A DNA stretch of 64,000 nucleotides from Kiritimatiellia bacterium (GTDB lineage Bacteria > Verrucomicrobiota > Kiritimatiellia > CAIVKH01), in the NCBI GenBank assembly GCA_035327665.1, contig DAOLCW010000006.1, positions 165 to 64,164 on the forward strand. Reading direction: 5' to 3'. Both the position numbers and the translations under genes were made by a program. Positions 32,905-61,237 of this stretch are shown piece by piece (positions within the stretch are counted from its first letter, which is position 1; each line of letters starts with the position of its first letter). The notes under the pieces were generated by a model. The model made no database searches. It saw nothing but the letters and a program-made list of their open reading frames with translations, and had not been told where the DNA came from.

Positions 32905-32909
32905 GGGGG

Positions 32910-34109: not shown

Positions 34110-34181
34110 CTACATCGGGCATAATTCCAAAAAATCGTGAAGGTAGGACAGCATCCGTTGCCTGTGCGGGCCGGAATCTTT

Positions 34182-37100
34182 TCACTCCGGCAATGCCGTT
34201 TCGGCCTGCAGGCGCAGGAATTGCATTTGTTGCTGAACGGGAATAGACGCTTTCCACAATTCGCGTTGTTGTGCATCCGTTTGGCCCGTGAAGATGTTTT
34301 CAATCCCATGGACGGTCCAGTCGTCATTAACCGCTGTCGCCTTGGCAGGATCGAGGTAAACATTCACAGCGCGCGGATTCTTATAGTAGAGCATGATCAG
34401 CTTCATCGTGCCGTTTTCCGCCTCAATCGAACTGCTAAACAGATCAGCGGTGGCACAAGCCTCCATCGCATCGAGTCCGGCGGCAAATTTCATAAGGTTG
34501 GGTATTCCGTCTCCCATTGGAGAATCTTTAGCTCCGCGTAGATTTGGATCGGGGATGGATTCTGCCCACTCCGAAAAGGTCGTCGTTAGTTCGGCCGAGT
34601 CATATGAAAAACGAAGTCGCATGTGGGCCTTGGGCCCGGTAAGTGGCAGGCGCGCCTCCCAAACCTGATAGTCATCCGTCTCTTCAGCCTCCAGGTGATG
34701 CCGCTCAATGCCGGCTTGGCGCCAGAGCGGCGACACCAGTGATCCCGACCATTCCGGCAGGATAAACACATCAACTGCCTGCTTTGATTTCCTATAGCGT
34801 AGGATCAGATAATTGCCTTCCGATCGACTCACGAACAGGTCATCAGCTTTATGCGCTTCGGTCGGGGACAGGCCGACTGCATATTTGGCTAGGTTCGGAA
34901 TCTGATCGTCCATCGGACTGTCATAAGGCCCCCTTTGGGTTGAATCTACGATTTGCCTCGCCCACCTCTCGTAAGCCGTCAGATCGCTTTGATTTGTCAC
35001 CGTCAGGAAGATCGACTTGGTCGATTCACGGTTACCGGCCCTGTCGACACTGTAATAACTCAGTGAATAGATCCCGGGCGTATCATAGGTAATCACCCCC
35101 GCATAGTCGATCCATGTGTTCTGGCCATCATAACTGACCAAGATCTGATCGATCCCACTGGCATCATCCGTAGCGGTGAGATGGATCATGACGCCATCCA
35201 AGTAGGCCCCGCTGGACAATCGGGTTCCTTCAATCGCGTAGGCAGTGACCGGTGCGAGCCAGTCGGTGCGCGCCTCATAAATCACAGAATCGGAGGGCTC
35301 GCTGGCATTGCCCGCCGCATCGATGGCAACCGCGGTAAGCTCGTAATCCCCGTAAATAAGTTTGAGCTCGGAGGTGGTGAACAGGCCATTGGTACCGGTC
35401 ATTGCGGTTGCGATCAGAACCCCGTTGCTGTTGCTTATATAAACCTTCGTGCCGATTTCCGCCGCTCCGGTCAGGACGACGGTTCCGTTGCTTGATACAT
35501 GTAGCTGCAAGGTCGGCGGGGAAGGTGGGGTGAAATCAACCACGACGAAAAAGGTGAAGGGATGCTCGACATTCGCGCCGGTTACGGCATCTTCGCCCGT
35601 AACCGTAACATCCATCGAGTACGATCCATCGGCAGCGTTATCGGCCAAGTCAATGTTTACGCCAAGTCGTAGTCGCCCTCCGGCGGCGATTTGTTCCACC
35701 CCGTCCTCAAACGCGAAAACCAACAGTTCGGTAGCAAGCAAGTCGCCCGCAGCGGTGACCAAATCGCCCGCCATGATGTTCATATTGGTCACGCCATGCG
35801 TGCCGCCAACCTCAAGAATATCGGCTTGGATCAACACATTGCCTCGGCCAGTGAGCATGCCGTATACCGAATGACGCGTGTGCAGGCGGGCCTCAGCATC
35901 CTGCAGTTCTGAGGCGATCAGGGCAAACTGATCGGACGGATGCACGCGTACTCCGTTAACGTTTACCGTCCAGACCGATCCCGCTTTCACATTGCGAATC
36001 GTCACGAGCTGGCAGCGGCTGTCTGGGCCGGTAAACATAGCGTTGGGTATCTCGACCACCACGGCACCGGCATCGCTGTCATAGCCGGCATGGTGCCCGG
36101 CAGAATCATGCACATGTAAATCCATCACAGCGGCGGGATCATGCAGGAGCATAAAACGCAACGCACCGTCCTGGGTCGCGGTATACGTCACCGTGTGCAT
36201 CGTATCGGTGCCAAAATCCTGCTGTAAAAGGTGTCTCGGGATCGAGTCGGCCAATCCGTTCAGCCGCAATTCTGTTGCACTCTGAACCGTGGTGACCCAC
36301 GGCCCGTAGGAAGCCCGTGAAAGCGTGTCCTCTTCCCACAGTTCAAGCATGAGCTCAACATCGAATCCGAAGAGACTGTAGGTTTGCGCGTCCGGAAGCA
36401 GGATCCCGAAAGAAAGCGTTCCCGCATCGCCTGCGTCAAGTTTGATGTTTGGAAACTCCAGCGACAGCACCTTGCGTCCATCGGCGTAAAGATTGATGAG
36501 CGGGCGACCACTCCAGTCCAGCGTTCCATTGTTGGCCAGCGTGATTACTCCGGGGGTTAGCCTCATGCCGCGCTCATCCGGGAGAATCGCATTTGCGATT
36601 TCAAAGGAGAGGACTTCAACCGAGAGAACGGGGTCAATCGGCCGGTGTTCAATCAGGTACTGGATGTGTCCGGAGAAATCGCGCATGAAGGACCAAACCA
36701 CTCCAGCTTCCTGCTGATGGGCGGCGGTGTAGTCTTGGATGTCCCGGAAGAGGATTCTCAGGCCGATGCGCTCGGCCTCCTTCATGGAACTCATCGCCTG
36801 TTTATAGATTTCCATCGCCTCATTGACGGAGCTTTGGACCGAGTTGTTCACATGTCCGGCCATCTCTCCGAGGATGCCCCCACCCATGCCACCGACCATG
36901 CCGAGAGAGTCAAAAATGAATTTGGTCATGCTCAGTTCGGTGTATTCGGCGACCAATTCGGCATGGAACGCGATGTTATCCCACTGCATCTGCAAGTGCT
37001 TATAACTCCGGTAGAGCAGCGCCTTCACTTCACCGAGTTCATGCGCTTCCATAATCGGCGTGTTCCAATAGGGCGATGCGGTTCCCATGGCATACCAGAA

Positions 37101-40100
37101 TACCTGGGCGCGGTCTTCGGCATTTTCAAGCCCCGGAGTGGTCACCGTATTTGGCGTATACGGCGATCCACTGCGTTTCCCAGGATCATAGCTCACCAGG
37201 GTGGCGGTCATGCTGTGCAACTCTTGATAGAGAAGATCTATTGGGAAAATGGCGGAAACCTTGCTTTGCTGGAGGCTCCACAACTGAGATCGCAGGATCA
37301 TTCCCAGTGAGTCAATCGCGGCCAAATACATATCTAGCCCCGCGACTTTTTGTCCGGCGCCAAGGTGCCGCAACAACTGATAATCATTAAGGTCTTCCGG
37401 GAGGTTGTTGTGCATCGCGATGTATTCCATAAGACGACGGTAGTATTCGCGCGAATCAACAGAAGCATATTCGAGCTGTTTGCGAATTTCCTCCGTAGTT
37501 GGCGGCGTAGCATTGTTTAAGGTCGCCTGGGCGAGTCGTCCCAGGTTCTCCGTGAGATTCTCTTGGATCTGCTTCTGCGCGTGGAGGAGATCAACCATCG
37601 CGAGCAATTCCGAGTTCAATTTCACAACCGAATCGCCAACACTGGCAAAGCCAAGAAGATCGATCGATTTCAACGCGTCGTAATAACTCATGTCACCGCC
37701 ACCACTCGGATTGTTCATCTCCTCGCCATACTTGTTGGCGATTTCGCGACGTGCTTGCTCGGTGGCTTTTTCCAACAAAGAGAGCACTTTGTTCTCTTCA
37801 TCGTAGAATTCGGTTATGTCTTTGGCAAATGAGTGGATACCGAACACAAGGTCCTTGATCGAATAGATCACCGAAATCATCTGGTTGACGGTTTCCGTGA
37901 CGATTTGTAATTGGCCGAGATAGGCCATTTCATGAATGATGTCTTCGGTTTCCGAGTAGATTTGCGCAAGGTGCCAGAATTCGTTTTCAACCTTGTTTTC
38001 AAGGGCGCGGATCAAGTCGTCTACCAGATCCAGCAGTTCGGCAATGGTGTGTTCGGTGCGAAATTCGTGGGTAACCGGGGCCTGAATCCATTCACCCTGC
38101 TCCCCGAGCATCATCGGACTGAATGTCTTGATCTGGCTGAGCACCTCGGTGGCGTGCAGATCGCTGCTGAAGGTGAGATTCCAGGTAAACTCCGCAGTTT
38201 CGTTTGGAGCCAGCACGTCAACCGTTCGCGAGGAGCTTGTGGCGGTATCGCTGATCACGGCATCCCGCATCGCGGGAAGTTCTATCTTCACGTTGTACGC
38301 ATTTCCTTGCCCGCTGTTGGTGACGCGGGCGGTGAGCGTACCGCTGCGGTTTCCGGTTTGTTTAAACGAATAACTGATCTGAATGGAGGGTGACGGCTGC
38401 ACGACGAACCCAACGTTCTGCTCATAGGGAATCCGTGCGTTGCCAAAAAGGGTGACGCCTTCAATGCGCGCGGTGTAAGGCGTCCCGCCGGATGTTCCGT
38501 CGGCGAGTGAGGGGTCGTTCACCAGCACCTTCCAAGCCGACCGCCGCGACTGCATGGCCGGAATGGCCTCTGCAGTGATATCGGACTGCTGCTGGATGCG
38601 GAAACGATGAGTCACCTCCACGCCGTTCGCATCATAGATCCGCAGGATACAGCTTTCCACCTGCAACGCCTGATCCGGCATCTGGTTGCGCACGGCGCTT
38701 TCCAGGATGAAGGACTGGCCGGCGGCGAGTACCTTTTGGCTGATCGAAGCCATCAGTCCGGCCTCTTCGGTTCCGTCGATTGCCGCCGCATTTTCCCGAT
38801 CCAAGCCGAGCCAGAGCGGGAGCGTATCCATGCCGACCGGGCAGCGGCGACCCATCCAATCGGTATAAAAGACGTATTCGTACGGTACACCGTTCTGCCT
38901 GTCGAAGGTGTCGGCAAGGCGTATCCGGATGTGATAGTTTGCCTCGAAGCCTTGCAACGTGAAGATGTGGATGATCCCGTCGAGAACCAAGTCTTTTCCG
39001 GCCTGTGCCTGCAGGGCCAGCAATCCGTTCACATCCAGATCCCAATTGATCACGGTGGTGGCGCGCGGAGCCATCATGAGGTGCAGCAGGTTGCCCTCAA
39101 TAAATGTGTTGCGAATGTGGATGTAGGGGGCCAGCTCGCCCTTCAAGACCAGCGCGACACCGATCAGGTACTCATCGCTATCGTTCGAGAAGGAGAACTG
39201 TCCGCGCTGGTTGAAGCGATCAAACTCCGGCACTAGCTCATCCATTTCCGCTGGCACCCCTGCCCCACCGAGAATCAGGGCAAACTCGCGCCCTGGGCGG
39301 TAAAGCCTCAGCGGATTTACCGCATTGCCTTCCAGCACCAGATTCAGACGGGCTTCGCCATAGCTTTCAAGCTCCTGTGAAGCCGTCCTCTGCAGTGTGA
39401 TGCCGAACGGTTCAACCCTCACAACAATGTCGTGTGTTTCGGTTTCTCCAGTTACGAAGAAGCTTCCTTCCAAGCCACTGTAGGGATAGGCGCTGCCGAT
39501 CAGTACGTTGTAGGCGCAACGGCCTGGTGGCAGATTCATCATTACCGTTCCCTTCGCGACGGTGGTGGTTCCAGTGCGCTCCACACCTCCGGAGCGGAAC
39601 AGGATGCGCTGTCCAGGCAGCGGATTCTCAAATTGATCCACCAGGCGGCAAAGGACATAATATTCGTGGGCGGGCGATTTCAACCGCAGCTCCAGCGGCT
39701 GTTCGGCACGATAGCCTTCGCCGGATTCGGCCGTGAGCTTCATCGGATACGTCGCTCCGCTTACCGATGATCTGAAGGTTTCCAGTTCGAGGCGGGCCAC
39801 CGCCGCCTGCCCGGGGGCAATATTTCCAAGTTTGCTGGGCGTGATGACGATCCATGGGTAATTGGTGCATACCAGCTCAACGTTGGTCAGCACCTCATCG
39901 GTATGGTTCGTAACCACCACATCGATGAGCACCTTGCGTTCGGCGCCAACGGTCAAACTATCCGTGTACGCCTCTTTCGGAATCGTGTGATCCAACATCG
40001 TCCCGTTAAAGATCAGGGCATCCTGCAACTCGATACCCAGCGTCTTGCGCTCAGTCGCAGAGAAGACGAACCAGGCCGACGTGGTCAGGTTGCTTTCCCC

Positions 40101-52100: not shown

Positions 52101-55100
52101 CGCCACCAAATGCCGTGAAGCAATGACCGAAAAGGTGTAAGACGGTGAAGTGGACACAACCTCGTCCGTGGCCCCTTCGCGCCACTCCACAAAACTGCAG
52201 TACGCCGCCGGATTGGCGGTCAGCGTGCCGGCGATCCCGTAGGACCACAACCCCGCTCCGCTGACCGTGCCGAGACCCGCAGGCGATATCGTCACCGTCA
52301 CCGCGAACTGGGTCCGTTCGAACTCCGCCACGAGTGTTCCGCTGCCCTGTACCGCGAACGAATGGCTCGGTGAATAACTCACCACCTGACCGTTGAATAG
52401 CCACCTCCGGAAAACATACTTTTCCGGATCCCCGACCGTGGCCATCGCCGAAAAATACTCGTTTCCATAAAGCGAGGCGCCCGGCGTGACACTCCCGGCA
52501 TCCGGCGGCTGCACCGCCGTTTCGATCGTGTAGAGCGTCATCTCGCTGGGAAGCTCGGGAGCCTGCACCACCCGGAAGGTTGCGGTGCGCCCGGCCCCCG
52601 CGACCACGATCCACGCCATCCGCTCGGCGCTGGTATCGTTCAAATCCAGACTGTAGGTCAACGTCCCGCTGCCTGTTCCCGACGCGCCGCCGGTGATCGT
52701 GAGCCATGGCGCCGTCTTCGTGGCGGTCCAGCCGTGGTTGCTCTCGACCTCGAGCGCGTTTCCGGCGGAGGCTGCGCCGACGTGCTCGCGGTAGTGCGGC
52801 GCCACCGAGAGAAACGCCGGTGCGCCAGCCTGCCGGATCGCCACCGTGCGACTCAGCCCGCCTCCCGCAATCGTCACCACGCCATCGCGCGCATCCAGCG
52901 ACGGGTTCGGCTGGACCCGGTAATGCACAGTACCCGCTCCGGAACCGGTCGTATCACCGGTCAGTTCCAACCAGGCCGCACTACTCGACGCAGTCCACTC
53001 CACGTTGCCGCATACTTCGATAACGTGTCCCCCCGAGGCGGAGGCGTCGTGATCACCTTGCTCGGGGACAACCACTAACAAGGCGCGCTGCTCGATCTGG
53101 AAGACGCGCACCGCCCCCGCGCCGGCGATCACCGTGATCGTTCCACTGCGCGGCGCGCCGAAGGTGTTTGCGGCCAGGCTGAACCGAACGACCCCGTCGC
53201 CGACGCCGCTCGCATTCCCGTCAATCGTGATCCATCCGGAACTGGCGGTTGCCGTCCATGTCATGTTTCCGGTCACGCGCAGCGATTGCCCGGTCACGGC
53301 GGCGTTGCCAAAGGCGCGGTGGCTTTCCGCCAGTGCGATCGTCCGGGGCGTGTCGCGGTGATACGGATAGCTCTGCCCGGCATCAATCGTCCAGACATCC
53401 ACAAAATTCCAGCCGCTAAAGGTCCCCGCCTGTTGCAGCGCTTCGGTCGCCAGTCCCGTGCCGCCGCCCGAGCTGCTCTCCTGCCCCGAGGTGCCCGTGT
53501 CCCAGAAACAATCCGTGATGTTTCCGGTGTGGCGGTAGCCAATTAATCCACCCAACCCGGACGACCCGCTCACCGCGCCAAAACTGAAGCCGCGATCCAC
53601 GTTGCCCCAGTACCCCCCACTACCCCCCGCATACCCCACCAGCCCGCCGACATTGTAACCACCCCCGACTGCGGCCCCGCTGTAGCAGTCCGCGATCGTT
53701 CCCTGACGATGCCAACCGACCAGCCCGCCCGCCGTTTCGGTAAACGCCCGCACCCGCCCCAGACTGTAGCACTGGGACAGGATCGGCGAACTGAAGGTAT
53801 AGCCTACCAGGCCGCCCACATATCGCCCGCCGCCGACCTCCATGATCGCCGAGACGCGACGGACTTGCGCCGTTTGCAGATCGCCGATCACGCCACCGAT
53901 GTTGTCCGTCTGCCCGCGAACCGTGGCCGTCACGGCGACGTCCTCCACCAGTCCCGCACCGGTCATCTGACCGGCCAGCGCGCCGAGCGTGGACAGCCCG
54001 TGAACGTGCGCGTTTTCCAGACGCAACGAGCGCACGGTCGCGGCCCCGAGGTAGCCGAAGAGTCCCTGCCCGGCGGAAACCGGACGGTTGATCGTCAGAT
54101 TGCGGAGCGCGAACCCGGCCCCGTCCAAGGTGCCCGTGAAACGCGCTTCGGACGTCCCCACCGGCAGCCAGCCCTGCCCGGCATTCCAGATCGTGGTGTC
54201 CGCCAGGTCGATGTCCTGCGCCAGCCGATAGTGCGCCCCGGGCGCCAGCCGCATCGCGTTCAGTTCCGAGGCATTGTGCAGCACATAAGGACTGAGCTCG
54301 GTGCCCTGACCTTGCAGGTCTTCCAGCGCAACCGCATCGGGCGGGACATAACCCCTGAAATCCTGAAACGCCGGGTAGCCCTCGCCCCCATCTATCCGCC
54401 AGACCGTGTCAAAATTGAAGAAGGCGTAGTTCTCGCGCGTCCACATTGCCGTCGTCGTGCGACCCTGTGCGCCGCTCCCTCCCGCGCTGGTCTCCCGTCC
54501 TGAGGTCTCGGTATCCCAGAAGCTGTCCGTGACGTTGCCGGTGTGATGGGTGCCAATCAGACCGCCAACACTGGATCCACCACTGACTGCGCCGACACTG
54601 AAGCAGCGATGCATATTGCCCCAGTATCCCGAATTGCCACCCCAGCCCACCAGTCCGCCGACATTCGCTGGACCCGTAACGTCCGCGCCGCTGTAGCAGT
54701 CCGCAAGCGTCCCGGAACGATGATAACCGGAAAGCCCACCGATCGTGTTTCCGGTGCCCGCCACCTGACCGAACGCGGCGCTGTGGCGGACCTGAACTCC
54801 GCCATCCGTGTATCCGACCAACCCGCCCACATGGGAGACACCCTGCACGCGGACGTCCGCGGTCGCTCGATGGATTGTGCCTCCGTTCACATACCCCACC
54901 AATCCGCCGATTTCGCTGTTGTGCCCGCGGACGAGTCCTGCGACCGACACGTTATCGATCGTGCTGGTGTCCGCGCGTCCAGCGAGGATACCGACATAGC
55001 GGTTGCCATAGACCGTCACCCCCTCCAGCCGGAGGTCGCGCACGGTTGCGTTCTGCAGATAACCAAAGTATCCCTGATAATCCGACTCGGGCCGGTTGAT

Positions 55101-58100
55101 CGTCAGGTTGCGGATCGCGTAGCCCCCGCCATCGAAGGTGCCGGTGAAGGGGGCGCTCGACGTCCCGATCGGAATCCAGCCGGAGCCCGCGTTCCAGATC
55201 GTTGAATCCGAAAGGTCGAGGTCGCCTCCGAGGCGGTAGTGGGCGGCAAGGTTCTGGCCCATCGCCCGCAACGCCGCCGGCGTCGTGATTAGATAGGGGT
55301 CTTCGACCGTGCCGGCGCCGTCCAAATCGCCCAGCGCCACCTCGGGCGGCTCCACATATCCCGCGATGCGCTGCAGCGTCGGATAGTCAATGCCTTCCTC
55401 GATCCGCCAGATGCTCTGGAAGTTGAAGACCCCATAGGTGGCCTGCTGCTTCATCTGCTCGGTGGTGCGGGCCGCTCCGCCCGCACTAACGCTCAAACCC
55501 GACACCATTTCATCCCAGAACCCGTCCGCCTCGGTGCTGCCGTAGTTTCGCCCGACATACCCGCCCACATTACTGTTGCCCGAGACGGGTCCGGCGCTGT
55601 AGCCGCGCCGCAGGCGGCTGTAGTAGAGATAGCCGACCAGCCCGCCCACATCGCTCGCACCGGTAACCGCCGCCCGGCTGTAACAGTCGCTGACGATCTG
55701 ACCATACTGATACCCCACCACGCCCCCGACCTGATTGCGCCCCGTCACCGACCCCCGTGCAGAACTCTGGATCAGCGAACCGGCGCTACTCGACATATAA
55801 CCAACCAGCCCGCCCACCCGGTCACGCCCCCGCACCGAGGCACCCACCGATGAGGCAAACAGCCTTCCTCCATTGAGCCGTCCCACCACTCCGCCCCCGT
55901 CATCCACGGTATTCACCTGCCCAACCCCGTCAATTCGCGCCAGAGCGCAATTCTCCGCCCACCCCACCAGCGCCGCCGTGTAGTGCTGCCCCTGCACAGA
56001 CGCCTGCTCAAAGACCACCCCCTCGATCACGGCATCCTGCGCATAGGCGAACAACCCCTGGTAATCCGTCGTGGACCGGTTGATCGCGAGATTGCGCAGA
56101 ATGAATCCGGCGCCATTAAACCGACCCCGAAAGCGGTCCGCCGCCGCAGACCCGCCGACCGGCGTCCAACCCCGACCACCATCCCAGGCGACCGTGGCGG
56201 TCAGGTCGATATTCGCCGCCAACTGGTAGTGCGCATGCAGGCCGTGACGCATGGCATCCAGTTCCTGAACATTGGTGATCAGGTACGGCGAAGCAGCCGT
56301 GCCCTCCCCTTGCAGCGCAGCGGTCGTCAGATTCTGCCGTCTGGCCAAAGAACTCAAGTCGTTCAACTCCGGGTAGCCCGCGCCCTCTTCGATCGACCAG
56401 AGCGTGAAGAAATTCCAATTCCGGAACGTGACGCGCTGGCGGAGCATAGCGCTCGGCAAACCGGCTCCGGCCGGACTCGTCTCCCTGCCCGAGGTACCCG
56501 TGTCCCAGTAGCAGTCAGCTTCCGAACCCCCGTAATTGCGCCCCACGAAACCCCCGATATCCGATCCCGTGCCAGTCACCAGCCCTGAACTGTAGCTCCG
56601 CCGCACCGGGGCATAGTACAAATACCCAATCAACCCGCCGACGATGCTGCCGCCCTCGACCTCCGCCCAACTGAAGCAATCGGAAACCATGGCATAATTG
56701 GCTTGCACTCCGACCAGACCTCCAACGGAGGACGTACCGCGGACCGCGCCTTTGGCGGCGCTGTGATAGAGCGTCACCGCGGATCCATCAAGACGCCCTG
56801 CGACGCCTCCGATCTCAGTTGATCCCTGGACGGTCGCATCAACCATCACCCCGTGCAGCGCGCTGCTGCCCCCCGCATGTCCGATTGCGCCGCCGGTGTA
56901 GGTGCCGCCCTGCACCGCACCCGTGACCGTCACCCGGTCTACCAGGCTGGCCCCCGTGGTCGCGCCCGCCAGCGCTCCCACGTAGGCCGCTCCCTGCACG
57001 GCGGCATCCTCCAGTGCCAGATGCTGCACAACCGCCCCGTTCAAAACGCCGAACAGTCCCTGGTAGTTGGTGCCCGGGCGCGCAATGGTCAGCCCCTGAA
57101 TCGCATGCCCATTCCCGTTCAGCCGACCATGGAAAGCGTTTGCGGAGGTCCCGACCGGAACCCACCCCGCGCCCTCGTTCCAGGGGGCGATACCAAGGTC
57201 GATATCCTCGACCAACCGGAAATGCTGCTCCCAGAACACCGAGCCCAGAAACTCCCGCAGGTTGTTCAACTGCGCCGGCGTCGCGATCTGCCAGGGATTT
57301 TCTTCCCGCCCCGTCCCATCCAGAAACAGGTGCACCGCGCCACGCGGCACATCGGCCCGACCCGCAGTGTCGCGCACCGTGACCTCGAACTTCAGAAACC
57401 GCCCCGCGTCCGCCTCAGTCTGCACCCAGGTCGCGCCGGTGGCTCCGGGGATCAGATCGAAGGGACCGTTCGCGGCCAGCCCCCGGTACCACTGGAAGGT
57501 CGTGCCCAACTCGGTGTCGCCGGCATCGCCCGGATGGTAGACGTAGTGTCCGGTGAGCGTGTTGCCGACACCATCGCGTCCCGTCACCCGCACCGGATGG
57601 GCCCACGGCGCTACGAGGGACACCCCGACGATGTGCCCGGACTCGCCCGCGAGCAGGTACGGCTCGCTGTACTGGCCCTCGTGACCAATACCCCAGGTCG
57701 TCGCGAAATCCCAGCCCACGTAGGTCGACTGCAGCACCATTTGCTCCGCCGGCTTGCCCCCGTGGCCGCCGTCGCCGGCGCTCGTGGTCCGACCCGAGGT
57801 CGTCACGTTCCAGTAGGAGCGCTCGATCCGCGTGCCCGCCGTGGCCGACCCGACCAGCCCGCCTACGTTGTTCGCGCCACTGACTGCCCCGACGCTGTAG
57901 CACTCAATCACGCGACCGCCGGCCAGGCTCCCGACAAGCCCACCGATCAGCCCCGTGCCCTGTGCCGCTCCACGCGCGTAGCTCTGCTCGACCCAGGCCC
58001 GGTCTCCGGCCATCTCGCCAACCAGCCCGCCCACGCGCTGCGCCCCCGTAGCCGATCCCAACGCGAGCGAGCGCAACACCTGGCTGTTCTCGTGGTACCC

Positions 58101-60263
58101 GACCAACCCGCCGACACTATTGCCCGTGCCGGTCACCGCGCCCGTGGCGTAGCTATCCACGATGCGGCCATTGATGTTGTGATTGCCGACGAGCCCCCCG
58201 ACGAGCGTCGTGCCGCTGACGTCGCCCGTGGCGAAGCACTCGACCACCTGGCAATCCTCCCAACTCTGCCCGGCAAGTCCGCCGATGCGCTCGCTCGACC
58301 CAATGACCGTCGCGCTGGAGGAACTGAACTCGATACGGCTCCCATATTGCGATGCCCCCACCAGCCCGCCAGAGCGGGTCCGCGCCGAAATCGTCCCGGC
58401 CGACGTACATCCCGATACGACACCGCCGTACTCGATCTGGCCCGCCAGCCCGCCGCTGCGGTCGCGCGCGTTAATGTCGAATCCGACGACGTGCAGCCGC
58501 TCAAGGCGCCCGCCGTTGACGTACCCGAACAGCCCCTGAAAATCGGTCGTAGCCCGGTTGATGAACAATCCGGAGACCGAGAAGCCGTCCCCGTCATAGG
58601 TCCCCAGGAACCCGGCGGTACTCGTCCCGATCGGCACCCACCCCTCGCCCTCGTTCCAGGGCGCGACTCCAAGATCGACGTCGGCGGTTTGCCGGAAATG
58701 GGCGCTGGGATTGTAACGAACCGCGTTGAGATGTTTCGCGCTGGCCACGAGATACGGACTCTCGACGCTGCCGTTGCCGCCCGCGAATCCCGCTGCACCA
58801 GGCGACGAAGCAAGGTTGTACAAATGGAGAATTTCTACCTCGCTTAAAGGCCGGTCGTAAATGCGTATATCATCGATGACGCCGTCAAACATATAGGTGG
58901 ACGAACTGCCCGCGTGTGCGGTGGCAATATACAGGGGCAAGCTCGAGCAGGTCAGCGAACCCGTTCGATTGGTGGTCGAGGAAAGCACGCCATTCACGTA
59001 AAGCCGTATCTGAGTGCCGTCATAGGTCGCGGTGACAAGGTGCCATTCGCTGGCATCGTGGGTGCTCGTGGAGCCCAGTCCGGTTTGTGTCCCGTCCAGT
59101 GTCATCCGCGTGAACGGCTGCTTGGTGTTCCGGGCGTACTCGAGAAGATAGGTCGTGTAGGGGGACGCGGTGTTGTGAAATCTCTTTTCGATGATCCGGC
59201 CGTTCGCATTCCCGCCCGAGGGTTTGATCCACGCGGATAGGGTAAGATGTTCCGGACAGAGCGCGGCGTCGTTCGTGACAACCATGTAGTCGCTGACCCC
59301 GTTGAACAGAAAGGCTGAACCAGGATTACCAAAACGGTCGGCAACAAGCTGCGGAGCGCCAATAACCGTCGCGTGGCGTCCGTTTCCACTCGCATCCTGA
59401 GTATTCCCGTCAAAGGGTAAATGGACAATCAGCCCCTCGTTCACATTGGTGCTCCCCGGCCCTTGGGCGGGTCCCCGCACAACGGCAACCGAATCCGCGA
59501 CGGACTGCCCGGCGCTGTTGGTGCCGGAGGCGGTGATGACGTTGGTGCCGACAGCGAGCAGGCTGGAGAAGGACCACGAGGACGCCACCGCCACTGCGCC
59601 ATTCGCGCCGTTCAGGTTGTTGGTCCAGCGGATCTGTCCAGTGAGGTTGGAGGAGATGCCGCCGATGGTCAGGTTGCTGATGCTGTGGCCGACGCTCTGG
59701 TTGGCGTTGGTGATGTCGAGATAGGGCGTCGTTGGCGGGGGCGACTCGGCGATCATTTTATCCAACGGGTCAGAATCCATACCGCCGCTGCCCAGGTCAT
59801 ATTCCGTAGGTGGTGACATCGGTGGGTTCCAGGCAGCCTCGAGCAGAGGACCATCGTAATAAAATTCGCCGGGCACAGGCATCATGCTTTCAAAGACCCG
59901 TCCGAAGACTACGGTCGTAGTGTTAGGTCCGGACGCGGAATAGAGGCCGTAAATACCGTTTGCCAAAGGGCTAAAACCAAAAATACTCAGGGTAGCCGAC
60001 GACAACAGGATGTCGTCGCCGCCCAGCCAACCCTCCGGGTTGGCGGGGTCGACCGGATCAATCTCGCCGTTGAGGCCGGCATCGATGAGTTGCGCGACCA
60101 CCGGACCTTCCATCAAAAGCGGGGTAACACCATCCGATTTGTAGAAACCCAACATGCTTCCCCATAAGATGGAAATCTCGTTTTGGGCGCATACCGGATA
60201 GATGCCCACCCCTGTGCCAAAAAGTATAAACAACCCAGCGAGTTTGATCCAGCGAGCGTTCAT
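34182..60263 (-). CDS. giant secreted multidomain adhesin-like protein (8,693 aa)
   Basis: A single ORF with no stop, starting at ATG 60263 with AAGGAGG 8 nt upstream, and a signal peptide (MNARWIKLAGLFILFGTGVGIYPVCAQ). By eye the architecture is: an N-terminal Ig-like region; a LamG domain (~58.8–59.4 kb: LIVHLPFDG…WHLVTATYDGTQIRLYVNG…FDGVIDDIRIYDRPLS); five ~340-aa modules rich in GLUG-type (V/I)GGLVG repeats, each opening with a conserved PY(L/V)I…L…A…HY(R/Q)L…D(I/L)DL…W…GWxP(V/I)G…F.G.(F/L)(D/N)G.G head (~53.4–58.8 kb); three BACON-like domains (~52.3–53.3 kb); InlB-B-repeat-like domains (~51.6–52.3 kb); a He_PIG/cadherin-like region (~51.0–51.5 kb); a long run of CARDB, FN3, PKD and Ig-like domains (~38.1–50.9 kb); an ~470-aa alpha-helical segment (~36.6–38.1 kb); and C-terminal Ig-like domains ending in two tandem DSPM(D/G)DxIPNLxK(Y/F)A(V/A)GL modules (~34.2–34.9 kb). 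Confidence 0.9.
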   Translation of the reverse strand: MNARWIKLAGLFILFGTGVGIYPVCAQNEISILWGSMLGFYKSDGVTPLLMEGPVVAQLIDAGLNGEIDPVDPANPEGWLGGDDILLSSATLSIFGFSPLANGIYGLYSASGPNTTTVVFGRVFESMMPVPGEFYYDGPLLEAAWNPPMSPPTEYDLGSGGMDSDPLDKMIAESPPPTTPYLDITNANQSVGHSISNLTIGGISSNLTGQIRWTNNLNGANGAVAVASSWSFSSLLAVGTNVITASGTNSAGQSVADSVAVVRGPAQGPGSTNVNEGLIVHLPFDGNTQDASGNGRHATVIGAPQLVADRFGNPGSAFLFNGVSDYMVVTNDAALCPEHLTLSAWIKPSGGNANGRIIEKRFHNTASPYTTYLLEYARNTKQPFTRMTLDGTQTGLGSTSTHDASEWHLVTATYDGTQIRLYVNGVLSSTTNRTGSLTCSSLPLYIATAHAGSSSTYMFDGVIDDIRIYDRPLSEVEILHLYNLASSPGAAGFAGGNGSVESPYLVASAKHLNAVRYNPSAHFRQTADVDLGVAPWNEGEGWVPIGTSTAGFLGTYDGDGFSVSGLFINRATTDFQGLFGYVNGGRLERLHVVGFDINARDRSGGLAGQIEYGGVVSGCTSAGTISARTRSGGLVGASQYGSRIEFSSSSATVIGSSERIGGLAGQSWEDCQVVECFATGDVSGTTLVGGLVGNHNINGRIVDSYATGAVTGTGNSVGGLVGYHENSQVLRSLALGSATGAQRVGGLVGEMAGDRAWVEQSYARGAAQGTGLIGGLVGSLAGGRVIECYSVGAVSGANNVGGLVGSATAGTRIERSYWNVTTSGRTTSAGDGGHGGKPAEQMVLQSTYVGWDFATTWGIGHEGQYSEPYLLAGESGHIVGVSLVAPWAHPVRVTGRDGVGNTLTGHYVYHPGDAGDTELGTTFQWYRGLAANGPFDLIPGATGATWVQTEADAGRFLKFEVTVRDTAGRADVPRGAVHLFLDGTGREENPWQIATPAQLNNLREFLGSVFWEQHFRLVEDIDLGIAPWNEGAGWVPVGTSANAFHGRLNGNGHAIQGLTIARPGTNYQGLFGVLNGAVVQHLALEDAAVQGAAYVGALAGATTGASLVDRVTVTGAVQGGTYTGGAIGHAGGSSALHGVMVDATVQGSTEIGGVAGRLDGSAVTLYHSAAKGAVRGTSSVGGLVGVQANYAMVSDCFSWAEVEGGSIVGGLIGYLYYAPVRRSYSSGLVTGTGSDIGGFVGRNYGGSEADCYWDTGTSGRETSPAGAGLPSAMLRQRVTFRNWNFFTLWSIEEGAGYPELNDLSSLARRQNLTTAALQGEGTAASPYLITNVQELDAMRHGLHAHYQLAANIDLTATVAWDGGRGWTPVGGSAAADRFRGRFNGAGFILRNLAINRSTTDYQGLFAYAQDAVIEGVVFEQASVQGQHYTAALVGWAENCALARIDGVGQVNTVDDGGGVVGRLNGGRLFASSVGASVRGRDRVGGLVGYMSSSAGSLIQSSARGSVTGRNQVGGVVGYQYGQIVSDCYSRAAVTGASDVGGLVGYLYYSRLRRGYSAGPVSGNSNVGGYVGRNYGSTEADGFWDEMVSGLSVSAGGAARTTEQMKQQATYGVFNFQSIWRIEEGIDYPTLQRIAGYVEPPEVALGDLDGAGTVEDPYLITTPAALRAMGQNLAAHYRLGGDLDLSDSTIWNAGSGWIPIGTSSAPFTGTFDGGGYAIRNLTINRPESDYQGYFGYLQNATVRDLRLEGVTVYGNRYVGILAGRADTSTIDNVSVAGLVRGHNSEIGGLVGYVNGGTIHRATADVRVQGVSHVGGLVGYTDGGVQVRHSAAFGQVAGTGNTIGGLSGYHRSGTLADCYSGADVTGPANVGGLVGWGGNSGYWGNMHRCFSVGAVSGGSSVGGLIGTHHTGNVTDSFWDTETSGRETSAGGSGAQGRTTTAMWTRENYAFFNFDTVWRIDGGEGYPAFQDFRGYVPPDAVALEDLQGQGTELSPYVLHNASELNAMRLAPGAHYRLAQDIDLADTTIWNAGQGWLPVGTSEARFTGTLDGAGFALRNLTINRPVSAGQGLFGYLGAATVRSLRLENAHVHGLSTLGALAGQMTGAGLVEDVAVTATVRGQTDNIGGVIGDLQTAQVRRVSAIMEVGGGRYVGGLVGYTFSSPILSQCYSLGRVRAFTETAGGLVGWHRQGTIADCYSGAAVGGGYNVGGLVGYAGGSGGYWGNVDRGFSFGAVSGSSGLGGLIGYRHTGNITDCFWDTGTSGQESSSGGGTGLATEALQQAGTFSGWNFVDVWTIDAGQSYPYHRDTPRTIALAESHRAFGNAAVTGQSLRVTGNMTWTATASSGWITIDGNASGVGDGVVRFSLAANTFGAPRSGTITVIAGAGAVRVFQIEQRALLVVVPEQGDHDASASGGHVIEVCGNVEWTASSSAAWLELTGDTTGSGAGTVHYRVQPNPSLDARDGVVTIAGGGLSRTVAIRQAGAPAFLSVAPHYREHVGAASAGNALEVESNHGWTATKTAPWLTITGGASGTGSGTLTYSLDLNDTSAERMAWIVVAGAGRTATFRVVQAPELPSEMTLYTIETAVQPPDAGSVTPGASLYGNEYFSAMATVGDPEKYVFRRWLFNGQVVSYSPSHSFAVQGSGTLVAEFERTQFAVTVTISPAGLGTVSGAGLWSYGIAGTLTANPAAYCSFVEWREGATDEVVSTSPSYTFSVIASRHLVAVFEEDVKEHEVTTATLPPGLAMIPGAGTWTNGQTATFVAPAMILKDDQRYVFQRFTRNGTHASNQSTWNWTLTRADPAVVLVQAEYQVYDMSPAVREVRRTFDSPVPATDTQVVTLVFDRTMDTGEIPLAVMRRRSDSAERVLSTQGGQWLNIYTTQDAYRYDPLTLVPADDGEYDLTVSGARDNYGVPMEPTNVWTFVVHGTPPTLTLPDLPTEINELVLFEFPAQGADGVPGNPLVFSLTAAPAGAAIHPQSGLFSWTPSERQGPGSYTFGVRLDDGLGHAIQTVTIDVLEVNRPPTLNAIPDRTIQGETALSFQAVGSDPDISAGDLQQSLTYRLEGNVPAGAAMTSSGYFTWTPTGAQIPGEYTMDVVVSDGESEARRSFTIYTFDRPDVTVTQLELPSLAPMEGAAVRLRARIDNIGGGDLLQGIYVGFYVNGNFIGNQWISSSTLPKGQYAWVERIWTAVPGTHTIEVRADYLNQVQESREDNNSLSETLAEILVPDIAVTHASWLPESINEGEKVRFFFDVTNLGGATARDVDVHLNVDGAWVASDRIRGPFGNRTESLVLEWTATPGPHSVEIVADRHGKISEINRTNNVVQISLDPIQDTLPPTFTSLVPGNGQRIRGVFALHVAATDISGISRYQIESSLDELFWTTLHEGAAGTGSWDTTVLADGVYAVRFSAEDTKGNIQQVTHRVTVDNTPPAAVTLSAQPIEFGAVLNWTKPAESDYSFCRIFRAASPEGPFVQLNATIYSQSSYTDRPLSPGMSYSYVVRAYDVAGNVSDDSNVVTVTPNGDQSPPEIRSLSPAENSAHNAIIHLLADIRDNVGVTLVRYEFTERPAGSYALSDLIWTNLCEGTAMSCDWDVTELPTGRYLIRLTAWDAAGLSSSLVRTYLVDHQPPGSVGAVTIQRRELALAVAWNSPGDSDLVGYRLSRQVNGGAFTVLKERLTSTLYVDMNLQPDVLYAYRVEAEDMLGQFGAPSDSPAVTTLSDTTAPILVGVMPQAWSRHSGAINLALLAKDNDAIATGAFWYRLVGNANWLECSGTPQALWQAEQRHWRIQQTWNPDGLPDGEIEIRARAEDRSNNSLETTFILVRDTEAPAAPQGLSATDPQTGSSIQLSWSANGESDLAHYRIYRRVSGESGWQPAGSSSSESFTVESLQSDQAYQFAVSAVDLAGNESPLSDISELATTTRADLTIQSLVFDPRTPAQGRLGHIVARVLNRGPARAQVTVRFYVSNGGAEEQVGIQHLWLNGLASADVRCPWIPQNGGSQTIRAVAVVVAPALDPTPGDNELSREVLVNHPPVAMAGSDRSVDWYEELAFDGSGSSDADGRIMEYLWTLGDGKTKRGMNVVHRYEAVGVHTVTLTVTDDRGVSSTDSILVTVADTRADLIVEKITWMPGEPEEGDEITIIATIRNQGNGPTRNAFFATYYISGVYHGYVIVHDRIAAGDAVDVTFRWTALKGLHTVKVVADDLINAVNELSEVNNDNQVHMTFQQIHFPDLLIAEMTCPVPAVITSQEALKATLTVQNAGTADAEKIFVALYQNGKMISRKPLPDLAASGTLTTTFDVMPVNGTNTLTAMVDGPVSLIVESDETNNSYTLELGDLTVEHPDLQLELTVQPDEEEMAHGSWIDMSATVKNLSAVGLLQTAPVDFYVNGRRVGTREIRHLAPGASKTVAFQVLATEGVHEIRVVVNENQTIAESDYSNNEQRHTTKEIRILYSDLTVGNVSWFTQHGGPVKYGDSLIVTFNLSNLSLVSSYARSSVILLVNGRQVSKLEIGSIRGYETVQTGLMWKNVDVDPTVSHTLAVQVDPENVIPEENEANNIATAAIQLSIQDGLIVDAKLDREADEVFGIPIYISSETCRVSARASYASAPKAWLDTSAGQTMTLSLIYTPGVVIQPGELPYYPDPETLYDDVPMLYDLLASRFNLELPLASFNETGNYSVRITYNDGALSRSQTLPFMVIQDCTIHMEPSSPRVLAGERLVISGRVLDLQGLPIADETLLLAIFEGEDGFGDMANPALAALANMASDVTTAKVKTSPTGEFTYLHRTLRGQSGMYTVTGYLISSVVAASGTCNFEILNAGFDSPGANITMPKNYTHSKTVTLRNSSIRALTNVRVDLSEVVAANGIEARLVSSVPSVLSAGQAVQLTVVLEAEEVADDAGQFRLSFSCNEGIERTYDLNVTLLDSGPSIRFSESMLKLGMNPGDTLFRRVTATNRGLGTLKNFTVSGAPNLPWVTVNYSGIRNLEPGAALELEVVVQPYAATGLGLYRDYITLSDENNISFRMGIEIELTSATRGGVSFTVGNDAGRLIERAEVRLISKETTPVINPDGSTAGQRYEVFIDRTDAAGRVMFEDIPTGAYTYSINSSGHESVKGEVEIMPSSLPVLISETLTATPITYTWSVTPITIEDRYEIILDISLRIDNLNKPSIVSLPPWATIAQTVEQGYSDRLIFVNQGDLALRNVRVEVIGDPKLINSLSLAGGGDIGIIEAGESVQLAYYIAPGTYEDLKGGSRFKLTGTYRALDQKTGEFADFGVTNQVPIYNPAADRTATIRVPGFQDEKVKMPDFGDGEQEFDGLPKLQDEDSDRVSVAVKLQIPQEATLEREGFEAVLTFRNGLSDDLVGFSVAPRVFDAANRDVTSAFYIVQPSLSGGLSAADGSQTLAGGTEFTASWILVPGVGLGGEDPAGKKYYVEAAATYSQAGQFREFNTHSEEITVHPQPLLELFYYLPEKILANTPFRLGVFVENHGFGEAKNFRIKSGQPKITENESGVPLQMEIVGSSFGAGNVETKEWAVEFGDVAALGWARGYWITRCNLDATVTEFTAELVHLPFKGVQLNPLITAVHTEIILGDFLFADEIDPNNSFSLIDRDDNGIPDYLINLHTGLRQDIIVPDELQVTQAPTIEAPQMTFTIPATNGFVCMVLNDPLVSINIRGIQRHHLDGSGAIHQLSGNNFWRDGEILYIVDRIGQIVNGQPVGMPVTYVIDYQSALEIRKLEIGTFVFNTLMANADDKTLGRYAQTHWWEDYRDDDGFGVIEYGLGSIANKVPLYNSPLPIIAGDEGGVRIELYNRGVSPESGDIGVYLIDAQGGETLVATAQVEELRSYRTQTVELVFDTTTDGLYTLEVRFLDTRTEGNASRQFRINARPVSDAGLDQTVKLGKPVRFNSSRSYDPDGVVVNYQWYMDDRRLDVDGKETGGKWIAGPVPSYTFADSGTYKVLLVVTDYDGAMEEDKMLVTVEETRPDLYVASFGHGQAEVLDGQLLTVSVGIGNAAEDLPPDAKFYVSLYAGEKLVDTRLVTGGLPAGQTGTISFDYIASMSEPFLTVVLDDMGSRVNEANEWNNVDTLAIFADQVVFADLVAENVRLSVAPGEPVNWGRPIQVLADIGNRGDINADKPFRISAYVDGIYLGHSALDQLETNATETVSFTWVPTPGEHLVEVIADWPHSHIRESNENNNRAALTVNKNNLNLILPNLVLQQLTFEPENGQLASGVPVLVTASIFNHSAVSLPFGSEVVMTVNGQTVARRAVAPIAAGHFTAALLTWNDPWPGTHDIKVSLDPGRLWYETDVSDNVLLVKKTFSITQGDLTVRQVVVPPAASAGVETRLGINIANRGLGRISKPFNARLFADEQPVAVERFNLLLLPGQTFWWNPVWVADETMAGNTVTLRVEVDTLDEIDESDETNNSYEASVLIEQGLKVVMDLDKTVSLPGDVVEVVIDVLDTKTMQRVPAANVAVSVVMRDANGTDMQIVSGAFDNGWSAMLPTAGIDAGKYGVQAVARGDGKTYVSASRSLVLVEELVVECAAPERVLLGEAFAITGRVSTIGGQGQSSRSVFVRVEPVSTNEPIFLPAITDASGNFEVTLQATKALAGELGISAQAVGADLLGMIFRSSSQTAMVFGLESLVSPMVIAGHLNEAAPFSLTVEAVGADVQIESVAFIPDPEGMGADGVVANLDAVVPSGLIPDGETRIFSGTVTSTQVCGHLLVEARMACRIGESNLTTSAWFVFSATERKTLGIELQDALIFNGTMLDHTIPKEAYTDSLTVGAERKVLIDVVVTNHTDEVLTNVELVCTNYPWIVITPSKLGNIAPGQAAVARLELETFRSSVSGATYPMKLTAESGEGYRAEQPLELRLKSPAHEYYVLCRLVDQFENPLPGQRILFRSGGVERTGTTTVAKGTVMMNLPPGRCAYNVLIGSAYPYSGLEGSFFVTGETETHDIVVRVEPFGITLQRTASQELESYGEARLNLVLEGNAVNPLRLYRPGREFALILGGAGVPAEMDELVPEFDRFNQRGQFSFSNDSDEYLIGVALVLKGELAPYIHIRNTFIEGNLLHLMMAPRATTVINWDLDVNGLLALQAQAGKDLVLDGIIHIFTLQGFEANYHIRIRLADTFDRQNGVPYEYVFYTDWMGRRCPVGMDTLPLWLGLDRENAAAIDGTEEAGLMASISQKVLAAGQSFILESAVRNQMPDQALQVESCILRIYDANGVEVTHRFRIQQQSDITAEAIPAMQSRRSAWKVLVNDPSLADGTSGGTPYTARIEGVTLFGNARIPYEQNVGFVVQPSPSIQISYSFKQTGNRSGTLTARVTNSGQGNAYNVKIELPAMRDAVISDTATSSSRTVDVLAPNETAEFTWNLTFSSDLHATEVLSQIKTFSPMMLGEQGEWIQAPVTHEFRTEHTIAELLDLVDDLIRALENKVENEFWHLAQIYSETEDIIHEMAYLGQLQIVTETVNQMISVIYSIKDLVFGIHSFAKDITEFYDEENKVLSLLEKATEQARREIANKYGEEMNNPSGGGDMSYYDALKSIDLLGFASVGDSVVKLNSELLAMVDLLHAQKQIQENLTENLGRLAQATLNNATPPTTEEIRKQLEYASVDSREYYRRLMEYIAMHNNLPEDLNDYQLLRHLGAGQKVAGLDMYLAAIDSLGMILRSQLWSLQQSKVSAIFPIDLLYQELHSMTATLVSYDPGKRSGSPYTPNTVTTPGLENAEDRAQVFWYAMGTASPYWNTPIMEAHELGEVKALLYRSYKHLQMQWDNIAFHAELVAEYTELSMTKFIFDSLGMVGGMGGGILGEMAGHVNNSVQSSVNEAMEIYKQAMSSMKEAERIGLRILFRDIQDYTAAHQQEAGVVWSFMRDFSGHIQYLIEHRPIDPVLSVEVLSFEIANAILPDERGMRLTPGVITLANNGTLDWSGRPLINLYADGRKVLSLEFPNIKLDAGDAGTLSFGILLPDAQTYSLFGFDVELMLELWEEDTLSRASYGPWVTTVQSATELRLNGLADSIPRHLLQQDFGTDTMHTVTYTATQDGALRFMLLHDPAAVMDLHVHDSAGHHAGYDSDAGAVVVEIPNAMFTGPDSRCQLVTIRNVKAGSVWTVNVNGVRVHPSDQFALIASELQDAEARLHTRHSVYGMLTGRGNVLIQADILEVGGTHGVTNMNIMAGDLVTAAGDLLATELLVFAFEDGVEQIAAGGRLRLGVNIDLADNAADGSYSMDVTVTGEDAVTGANVEHPFTFFVVVDFTPPSPPTLQLHVSSNGTVVLTGAAEIGTKVYISNSNGVLIATAMTGTNGLFTTSELKLIYGDYELTAVAIDAAGNASEPSDSVIYEARTDWLAPVTAYAIEGTRLSSGAYLDGVMIHLTATDDASGIDQILVSYDGQNTWIDYAGVITYDTPGIYSLSYYSVDRAGNRESTKSIFLTVTNQSDLTAYERWARQIVDSTQRGPYDSPMDDQIPNLAKYAVGLSPTEAHKADDLFVSRSEGNYLILRYRKSKQAVDVFILPEWSGSLVSPLWRQAGIERHHLEAEETDDYQVWEARLPLTGPKAHMRLRFSYDSAELTTTFSEWAESIPDPNLRGAKDSPMGDGIPNLMKFAAGLDAMEACATADLFSSSIEAENGTMKLIMLYYKNPRAVNVYLDPAKATAVNDDWTVHGIENIFTGQTDAQQRELWKASIPVQQQMQFLRLQAETALPE

Positions 60264-60319
60264 GGCGCGACCTCCTTGGCACGACCGTCGGATCGTTCCG
60301 ACACCTTCCGTGCATTGCC

Positions 60320-60485
60320 CTGGTTGAAACCGTTCATGAGACCTTCAAACCGTTCTCTTTGAATCCGGCTTCAGTTTCGCGCCGCCATGAAAAAGCACAA
60401 CGCGACAGTTTTAACTTTATGTTAAACGATGGAACCGTCAGAACGCCCGGTGCAGGAGGCGACGCGGCATGGTCGATAAGCGGTT
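60320..60485. repeat. ~165-bp direct repeat, copy B (5' leader side of the giant gene)
   Basis: Homologous to 33946..34109, with the same conserved 26-mer at 60436-60461. The minus-strand mini-ORF reads MPRRLLHRAF (60438..60470). The repeat ends 56 nt upstream of the giant gene's start codon. Confidence 0.85.
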
Positions 60486-60498
60486 GGATGGGCGCTGG

Positions 60499-61193: not shown

Positions 61194-61237
61194 TCCTCAG
61201 CGGCGCGGCGCCGCGCCGCATCCCTCTGTTCGGCATC

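Follow-up and report, generated by a model that had tools for sequence, protein, structure and literature searches.

A 26-kb open reading frame of a Kiritimatiellia bacterium encodes a predicted exported giant protein ending in a candidate sorting domain

A single gene of 26 kb in the genome of a Kiritimatiellia bacterium (assembly GCA_035327665.1, contig DAOLCW010000006.1) raises the question of how a protein approaching 1 MDa could be exported and held at the cell surface. The gene was analyzed within a stretch of 64,000 nucleotides of this contig, hereafter the window. The host is a Kiritimatiellia metagenome-assembled genome (MAG), a diderm of the Planctomycetes-Verrucomicrobia-Chlamydiae (PVC) group, and the proteins flanking the locus are exact matches to the Kiritimatiellia MAG proteins HMP71984, HMP71986 and HMP71994. 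To our knowledge, no mechanism has been described by which PVC-group bacteria bring giant proteins to their surface. Our analysis suggests that the product is a Sec-exported, non-enzymatic binding protein of ~0.93-1.0 MDa, acquired with a genomic island and sorted by its C-terminal domain (CTD), and that its GLUG region is collapsed or deleted in this assembly; taken as a whole, we regard this account as rather probable. What is distinctive in the protein is the uncatalogued family of the CTD and an orphan helical block. Size and composition alone are not distinctive, because giant multidomain proteins have been documented in the PVC phyla, where very large ones are fairly frequent (West-Roberts et al., 10.1101/2023.11.21.568195); the rarity ascribed to a protein of this size by the first-pass annotation, a reading of the sequence made before the present analysis, is overstated.

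The open reading frame (ORF) is real and not in doubt, because it is open in both assembly versions of the locus, with five as well as with seven GLUG modules (see below). The translation (933 kDa, pI 4.7, both computed) contains one stop only, at its end. Given the base composition of the gene itself, about 295 stops would be expected over 8,693 codons, and no internal stop was seen (log10 P = -130); the remaining two frames of the minus strand across the gene contain 313 and 264 stops. The GC content at codon positions 1, 2 and 3 (0.61, 0.46 and 0.72) is a normal coding signature. The start codon is preceded, with a 7-nt spacer, by the Shine-Dalgarno sequence AAGGAGG (~60271-60277; upstream sequence ...GCCAAGGAGGTCGCGCC-ATG), so that both the uninterrupted frame and the strong ribosome-binding site described at first reading were recovered. 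Many antisense ORFs of up to 664 aa lie opposite the gene on the plus strand between 36645 and 58847 (e.g., 56853-58847 and 48594-50294); they are not considered genes, because high GC content yields such by-products. The features of the locus are listed in Table 1.

The protein starts with the sequence MNARWIKLAGLFILFGTGVGIYPVCA, followed by QNE, in which basic residues precede a 15-residue hydrophobic core and V-x-A occupies positions -3/-1; no lipobox was found in this segment. Apart from residues 8-26, the protein has no hydrophobic 19-residue window; therefore a Sec-type signal peptide is assigned, as had been proposed, and no membrane anchor.

A module of ~130 aa, present twice, makes up the last 269 residues; its copies, here termed the internal-type and the terminal-type CTD, share 34% identity. 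The AlphaFold2 (AF2) model of the terminal copy (predicted local distance difference test score, pLDDT, 95.5) comprises a helix-loop followed by a beta-sandwich of ~80 aa. The motif D-x-P-x-GDGIPNL-K[YF]A-GL occupies the helix-loop, and the beta-sandwich ends in F-[IM]-R-L; over the ~133 positions of the CTD profile, W11, P27, D30, N34, L35, K37, Y38, A39, G41, L42, W94, R129 and L130 are invariant or nearly so. Both copies score 134-136 bits against a profile of 35 CTD sequences. No match to the CTD was found in Pfam at E<=10 or in NCBIfam at E<=0.01, and no description of it was found in the searchable literature on PVC C-terminal sorting domains.

An exhaustive HMMER search of 1.84 billion cluster representatives with a 7-module profile yielded 1,097 representatives at E<=1e-3, 145 of them at E<=1e-10. 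Among the best 148 matches, 135 end at most 12 residues from the C-terminus, as does the last copy in the window protein, and only 7 contain more than one copy. Carrier length varies between 76 and 6,981 aa, and the passengers are unrelated (Glug with Flg_new_2/InlB-B, BspA-type leucine-rich repeats, He_PIG); by a crude hydropathy test, signal-peptide-like N-termini were present in 73 of 106 apparently full-length carriers. Independently, GTDB species genomes were scanned with the single pattern P[AMD]GDGIPNL, which gave 94 confirmed relatives; 79 loci were kept, often several per genome, and 76 of them came from Kiritimatiellia, Lentisphaerae, Verrucomicrobiota or records labelled 'PVC group'. 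Here the stop follows the module by at most 12 residues in 68 of 71 closed ORFs. The 'novel C-terminal tandem module' of the first-pass annotation is hence indeed a tandem, but it is not peculiar to this protein: the family of terminal domains to which it belongs is large and PVC-wide. Adjacent pairs of CTD-bearing ORFs occur in five of the GTDB PVC loci (L011, L017, L026, L057 and L061), which suggests local clusters of paralogous CTD cargo. Two matches fall outside PVC-labelled genomes, one in an Oligoflexales MAG (L074; complete and terminal) and one in an Enterobacteriaceae-labelled MAG (L085; partial and internal).

Close relatives of the giant protein itself are few. Word-indexed protein searches with its C-terminus returned only fragments of orthologues (from Tichowtungia sp. 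and an ENA contig), and 13 matches only when the 35-sequence profile was used; for its last 1,300 aa, a set of 5.8 billion proteins contains no more than three or four relatives, all fragmentary. Nothing was found with the C-terminal 972 aa in a scan of genome contigs or with the N-terminal 500 aa in a scan of metagenomes. The orthologues keep one terminal-type CTD and vary in the number of internal-type copies, the totals being two in the window protein, three in P0003 and four in L007.

Because the CTD holds a strict end-of-protein position on hundreds of unrelated exported proteins of one superphylum, we take it as the foremost candidate for sorting or anchoring the giant protein; since it belongs to a large PVC-wide family, the question of anchoring has a concrete candidate. 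We tentatively suggest that the CTD might be the recognition or anchoring signal of an undescribed sorting pathway common to Kiritimatiellia, Lentisphaerae and Verrucomicrobiota, with the giant protein among its largest cargos. Such a pathway may be functionally analogous to the one that recognizes the CTD of type IX secretion system (T9SS) cargo in Bacteroidota (e.g., PMC4804311), with which the PVC module shares a Sec signal peptide, a variable passenger, a conserved terminal beta-sandwich and many unrelated cargos within one genome. Unlike the T9SS domain, it is ~130 aa long, carries an additional N-terminal helix-loop motif (GDGIPNLLKYA) and occurs in tandem; it matches no T9SS CTD model of Pfam or NCBIfam, and no such domain stood at the top of the fold searches. 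We know of no T9SS in the PVC phyla. The C-terminal location, the acidic D-x-P-x-G-D-G-[IV]-x-N-L loop and the helix presumably resemble those of Ca-binding dockerins and bacterial thrombospondin-type-3 repeats, docking modules by which proteins are tethered non-covalently, a likeness that we take as a lead only: no match to Dockerin_1 or TSP3_bac was obtained at E<=10, and, in contrast to the duplicated loop of dockerins, the loop of the CTD is single and fused to the ~80-aa beta-sandwich.

Alternatively, the CTD could be one more Ig-like domain, serving as a spacer or in ligand binding, or else a carbohydrate-binding module; it would then play no part in sorting or anchoring, and the protein would be released into the medium or held by some other part. 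We find this rather doubtful, although four points speak in its favour. First, fold searches with the CTD returned only generic Ig/FN3 sandwiches and no specific solved relative, with a match of the carbohydrate-binding module 21 (CBM21) type at low Z, as a binding or spacer domain would. Second, no dedicated machinery gene is conserved beside the CTD in the 79 loci, where the neighbours were antisense-ORF artefacts, generic ATP-binding cassette (ABC) exporters (6 loci) and abundant PVC prepilin-type proteins. Third, tandem copies are unusual for cleaved secretion signals. Finally, the terminal position is also compatible with an ordinary binding module that tends to be terminal. On the other hand, the terminal position was observed in 91-96% of carriers over the two surveys, on passengers as diverse in length as those given above; multi-copy and internal occurrences are rare (the same 7 of 148); and the CARDB, PKD and FN3 domains of the giant protein itself obey no such positional rule. 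Sorting by the CTD is accordingly the reading that is carried forward below, at the tentative strength stated.

The recognized routes of surface display were considered and rejected, and the absence of LPXTG, PEP-CTERM, T9SS CTD and autotransporter signals reported at first reading was borne out by Pfam, NCBIfam and motif checks. T9SS cargo was rejected, as there was no match to Por_Secre_tail, TIGR04183 or TIGR04131 (Pfam at E<=0.1-10, NCBIfam at E<=0.01). The sole LPXTG-type motif, LPLTG at residue 8539 within CTD copy 1, is a chance match and the protein is not a sortase substrate, because the motif is not conserved in the orthologues, which have LPRTAT or LPTAST at this place, and no hydrophobic segment follows it. 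The tail (...FLRLQAETALPE) has neither a PEP motif nor a hydrophobic window, which excludes a PEP-CTERM/exosortase substrate. No C-terminal beta-barrel translocator and no family of two-partner secretion (TPS) was found in Pfam or NCBIfam, so that a type V secretion system (T5SS) autotransporter or a two-partner system was rejected, and a repeats-in-toxin (RTX) adhesin of the type I secretion system (T1SS) was rejected as well, in view of 0 GGxGxD motifs, the signal peptide, and an island that contains no transport operon.

The last two routes deserve a further word. The giant size, the acidic and repeat-rich composition and the diderm host are shared with the T1SS giant adhesins SiiE, LapA and MpIBP; size, Ig-like repeat arrays and a pI of 4.7 would all suit a T1SS-secreted RTX/LapA/SiiE-type adhesin or a T5SS autotransporter, and a weak Ca_tandemer match (aa ~8255-8321, E=6e-6) was obtained under the cut-off. 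However, T1SS adhesins differ from the window protein in the very features that would define the route, since the latter has a predicted cleavable Sec signal peptide and lacks RTX repeats (no GGxGxD nonapeptides) and a T1SS operon (no ABC, membrane fusion protein or TolC genes lie within the island); nor was any autotransporter, TpsA or beta-barrel family matched. We therefore regard secretion by T1SS or T5SS as extremely improbable.

The length of the protein depends on the assembly. The locus is also carried, in the same strain, by the ENA contig ERZ794930 NODE_122 (128,781 nt) and by Logan contigs of SRR2107180/1. In the ENA contig the gene encodes a single product of 9,335 aa (28,008 nt) with identical start and stop context; outside the GLUG region, the pieces of this contig that were read match the window at 100% identity, which in the flanks extends over more than 20 kb. 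The window gene equals the ENA gene minus two exact in-frame deletions in the GLUG region, of 918 nt (306 codons) and 1,008 nt (336 codons), whose junctions are the repeats R1 and R2, respectively. The two deletions total 1,926 nt, exactly the difference in length between the versions, and the products differ by 642 residues. The five GLUG modules noted at first reading are present in the window version of the gene, while there are seven in the ENA version. Modules 1, 3 and 5 of the window correspond to ENA modules 1, 4 and 7 at 100% identity, and modules 2 and 4 of the window are chimeric, combining ENA modules 2/3 and 5/6, respectively.

R1 and all of its 31-mers are unique within the window. 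L006, a Logan contig that shows no other difference from the window, breaks off 30 nt inside R1, as happens in a graph built with k=31, the value used for Logan, when the reads contain two left contexts of R1; the run matching the window therefore contains the additional module sequence. A collection of 15 billion proteins did not include the exact 8,693-aa sequence, and word-indexed protein searches did not return the 9,335-aa ENA product. The GLUG region is either prone to recombination or difficult to assemble, and we think it likely that the window gene is a repeat-collapsed assembly; most likely, the true gene has seven GLUG modules and encodes 9,335 aa, and the true length is probably not 8,693 aa, or not this alone. 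An assembly-collapsed repeat had been named in advance as one way in which the ORF could fail: the window indeed has two modules fewer than the other assembly, but the frame is unaffected.

That the 8,693-aa form is a real deletion variant, co-existing with the longer one and produced by recombination between the 56-nt and 188-nt intragenic repeats, is a serious possibility that we nevertheless do not favour. Both deletions are exactly in frame and leave the chimeric modules intact, the graph branch at R1 in SRR2107180 would fit a mixed population as well as a repeat, and the varying CTD copy number of the orthologues (2, 3 or 4) makes a change in module number typical of this gene family; surface proteins are known to vary in repeat number in a comparable way. 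Yet in-frame junctions arise automatically for modules in register, and the skipping of a loop between two exact repeats is a classic shortcut of de Bruijn graphs. R2 is unresolvable without pairing information, because its 188 nt exceed typical short reads, and 100% identity of the flanks across more than 20 kb makes one genome assembled twice the simplest reading. A collapsed repeat in the window is thus retained as the likely cause.

Between the signal peptide and the CTD, the protein is an array of binding-type domains. Pfam scans were performed on the protein as two halves and as ten overlapping 1,000-aa pieces, with gathering thresholds applied. All eight families foreseen at first reading (PF13385, PF07581, PF13004, PF18998, PF05345, PF07705, PF00041 and PF00801) scored above threshold: Laminin_G_3 (101.3 bits against 27.6), Glug (98.1 against 20.5), BACON (63.6 against 25), Flg_new_2 (27.9 against 23.6; 32.3 bits in the overlapping-piece scan), He_PIG (38.5 against 24), CARDB (282.8 against 22.7), fn3 (78 against 25) and PKD (57.5 against 23.5). 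PKD_4, Big_6, Big_13 and BACON_2 also exceeded their thresholds, CarboxypepD_reg only on a long fragment (35.7 against 32.3 bits). No family was matched by residues 27-321, ahead of LamG, in the Pfam scans, and no PDB sequence relative was found for residues 4540-5880. Neither Pfam nor NCBIfam yielded a catalytic family, and there is no HEXXH motif anywhere in the protein, for which reason a zincin protease was rejected. The label 'adhesin-like' is apt as far as the binding-type domains go; an adhesive function is what these domain types, together with the absence of enzymes, lead us to infer.

Two known systems offer partial parallels. First, the GLUG modules resemble the non-catalytic N-terminal region of the pneumococcal ZmpA/IgA1 protease (M26), matching Peptidase_M26_N (E=1e-20) and the non-catalytic part of ZmpA in NCBIfam, whereas the giant protein has no M26 catalytic domain and repeats the modules five to seven times. 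Second, the giant proteins of at least 5,000 aa described from PVC bacteria (West-Roberts et al., 10.1101/2023.11.21.568195) are likewise single ORFs of tens of kb with a signal peptide and long arrays of Ig-like or beta-sandwich domains, and they too come from metagenome-assembled PVC genomes, in which fragmentation or collapse of assemblies is a recognized problem. In contrast to them, the window protein has no peptidase or other enzyme domains, no transmembrane anchor and no adjacent genes of the type II secretion system (T2SS) or pilZ; the words Kiritimatiellia, GLUG and CARDB have 0 occurrences in the text of that paper.

The second distinctive element is a block of ~500 aa near the C-terminus, common only to three or four Kiritimatiellia orthologues, which is among the best-conserved parts of the protein (65-68% identity, many invariant columns). 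It includes a Gly-rich hydrophobic segment, FIFDSLGMVGGMGGGILGEMAG, which is invariant and GxxxG-rich and falls short of a transmembrane-like hydropathy score. The alpha-helical nature of the block claimed by the first-pass annotation agrees with the secondary structure of the AF2 model, which contains helices only, but confidence in this model, built from a 3-sequence alignment, is low (pLDDT 37), and it was kept out of the fold search. In one orthologue (L001, ENA ERZ23498500 scaffold_34868) an in-frame TAA at positions 782-784 aligns with residue ~7641 of the window protein, inside the block; this is either a pseudogene or a sequencing error.

The conservation of the block and of its hydrophobic segment, the location of the gene on a mobile-type island with toxin-antitoxin genes, and the link of giant PVC proteins to attack on other cells (10.1101/2023.11.21.568195) would agree with a delivered effector or toxin, or with an apparatus for predation or contact-dependent action, in which the helical block would insert into membranes and the beta-domains serve as a delivery stalk. 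Against it stand the lack of any match to a toxin, pore-former or defence family, a structure model of the block that is unusable at its pLDDT, the sub-threshold hydropathy of the segment, and the lack of an immunity-like gene pattern next to the gene. Such a role is very unlikely in our view, and a binding protein is the preferred reading.

The gene lies within a compositionally foreign island of ~29 kb, which was horizontally acquired and is no longer obviously mobile. The skew of G over C at third codon positions (GC3 skew, plus strand) is about 0 throughout the giant gene, taken as nine 3-kb chunks, and in every small gene between 32910 and 61818, in contrast to values of -0.55 to -0.76 for nearly all core genes in both orientations (1-32767 and 62139-64000), an exceptionally strong replication-strand asymmetry. 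Exceptions among the core genes are the ORF 14062-15525(-), at +0.05, and the ORFs at 8257-10442(-), with a weaker skew. Genes outside the island are housekeeping ones (HflX, MiaA, LspA, DksA, GatCAB, release factor, MoxR). Logan contigs break at both island edges (32906 and 62038), two of them, L003 and L004, beginning exactly at 32906. The island carries, besides the giant gene, a truncated integrase and toxin-antitoxin genes (Table 1). Proteins nearly identical to its MazF occur on many short metagenome contigs (a 10-member cluster). Next to the island, a DksA/TraR zinc-finger protein (31811-32767, minus strand) has a ~150-aa Lys/Ala/Pro-rich, histone-H1-like N-terminal extension.

The giant gene is flanked by two copies of a ~165-nt direct repeat, 86% identical and with an identical core of 22-28 nt. 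The repeat contains a promoter-like CTGACG-16-TATACT (downstream copy) and a palindrome, GTTTAAC-N5-GTTAAAAC, and probably holds the promoter or leader of the giant gene. Rfam gave nothing relevant for the downstream repeat region, the fold of the leader RNA was no more stable than shuffled sequences (z = -0.8), and no copy of the 22-nt core was found in JGI metagenome contigs.

Table 1. Location of the features described in the text (window coordinates; residues refer to the 8,693-aa product).
Feature	Position (nt)	Strand	Residues	Basis or remark
Giant ORF	34182..60263	minus	1-8693	ATG start; 8,693 aa plus stop
Sec-type signal peptide	60186..60263	minus	1-26	Predicted cleavage between VCA and QN (-3/-1 rule)
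LamG (Laminin_G_3)	58830..59300	minus	322-478	Pfam, E=3e-27
Five GLUG modules of ~320-490 aa	53331..58760	minus	502-2311	Starts at 502, 989, 1325, 1655, 1991
Repeat R1, 56 nt	56686..56741	minus		Single copy in window; two copies 918 nt apart in ENA contig
Repeat R2, 188 nt	54712..54899	minus		Single copy in window; two copies 1,008 nt apart in ENA contig
Three BACON domains	52584..53288	minus	2326-2560	Pfam
InlB-B-like (Flg_new_2) repeats	51834..52556	minus	~2570-2810	Pfam; copy number three read from sequence
Two He_PIG/Big_9 cadherin-like Ig domains	50943..51491	minus	~2925-3107	Pfam
Central beta-domain array	41022..50927	minus		Pfam and own-repeat profile
12 CARDB repeats in central array			3113-3320, 3917-4009, 4112-4551, 5774-5867, 5971-6414	Profile from the protein's own repeats
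Alternating Big_13/FN3 block	in central array	minus	3330-3910	Pfam
Two PKD domains	in central array	minus	4024-4107, 5872-5963	Pfam
Beta-rich stretch without family	in central array	minus	4552-5773	
CarboxypepD_reg	in central array	minus	~5030-5108	Pfam
Beta-rich region B	38097..41021	minus	6415-7389	Weak CARDB/NPCBM_assoc-like matches only
All-alpha block, ~500 aa	36594..38096	minus	7390-7890	AF2 helices only, pLDDT 37
Beta region without family, then Big_6, then OmpL47-type beta-barrel domain	35013..36593	minus	7891-8252, 8253-8325, 8358-8417	
CTD copy 1, internal type	34599..34991	minus	8425-8555	
CTD copy 2, terminal type	34185..34598	minus	8556-8693	
Foreign island, ~29 kb	32907..61982			Contains giant gene
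HicB-like antitoxin gene	32910-33128/33341	minus		Island edge; no recognisable HicA partner
Truncated tyrosine-integrase remnant	33401/33431-33841	plus		136-146 aa; first catalytic Arg region only
~165-nt direct repeat, downstream copy	33946..34109	minus		Starts 73 nt past giant stop
~165-nt direct repeat, upstream copy	60320..60485	minus		Between XRE gene and giant ATG
XRE helix-turn-helix gene	60499-60882	minus		Directly upstream of giant gene
MazF/PemK toxin	61238-61570	minus		Near tRNA-Glu
Ribbon-helix-helix antitoxin	61567-61818	minus		Paired with MazF/PemK
tRNA-Glu(CTC)	61983..62058	minus		3' end abuts island
tRNA-Asn	62079-62153			Next after tRNA-Glu

Judging from the domain types, the protein would work as follows. 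Export of the giant chain through the inner membrane would depend on the signal peptide; the long array, made up of LamG, beta-helix-like GLUG, BACON, InlB-B, He_PIG, CARDB, FN3 and PKD domains, would form an extended stalk; by its glycan- or protein-binding heads, the cell would adhere to particles, to polysaccharide or to other cells; and the two CTD copies, given their end position, would target the protein to the surface, retain it there, or both. In addition to the points raised on the CTD, several observations weigh against this account. Three beta-rich stretches (4552-5773, 6415-7389 and 7891-8252), together about 2,500 aa, match no family and no PDB sequence, and the helical block likewise has no family or PDB sequence match and none in phage or plasmid collections. 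At the in-frame TAA mentioned above, the gene caller split the orthologue in two. Over the middle 11.4 kb, the identity of the ENA gene follows only from the equality 1,926 = 918 + 1,008. As to the island, its integrase is only a fragment, and no att-like (attachment site) copy of the tRNA-Glu 3' end above shuffled controls was found at the far edge.

The locus has implications beyond this gene. It is a caution concerning giant repeat-rich ORFs in MAGs, whose lengths should not be trusted at face value, because here two versions with identical flanks differ by 642 residues. It also connects a giant cargo that is well defined with a family of terminal domains that is large and uncatalogued and has a confident predicted fold. 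Giant surface proteins are probably the means by which particle-attached polysaccharide degraders such as Kiritimatiellia hold their substrate, and the CTD gives experimenters a concrete, testable handle on how such proteins are placed on the surface of PVC bacteria.

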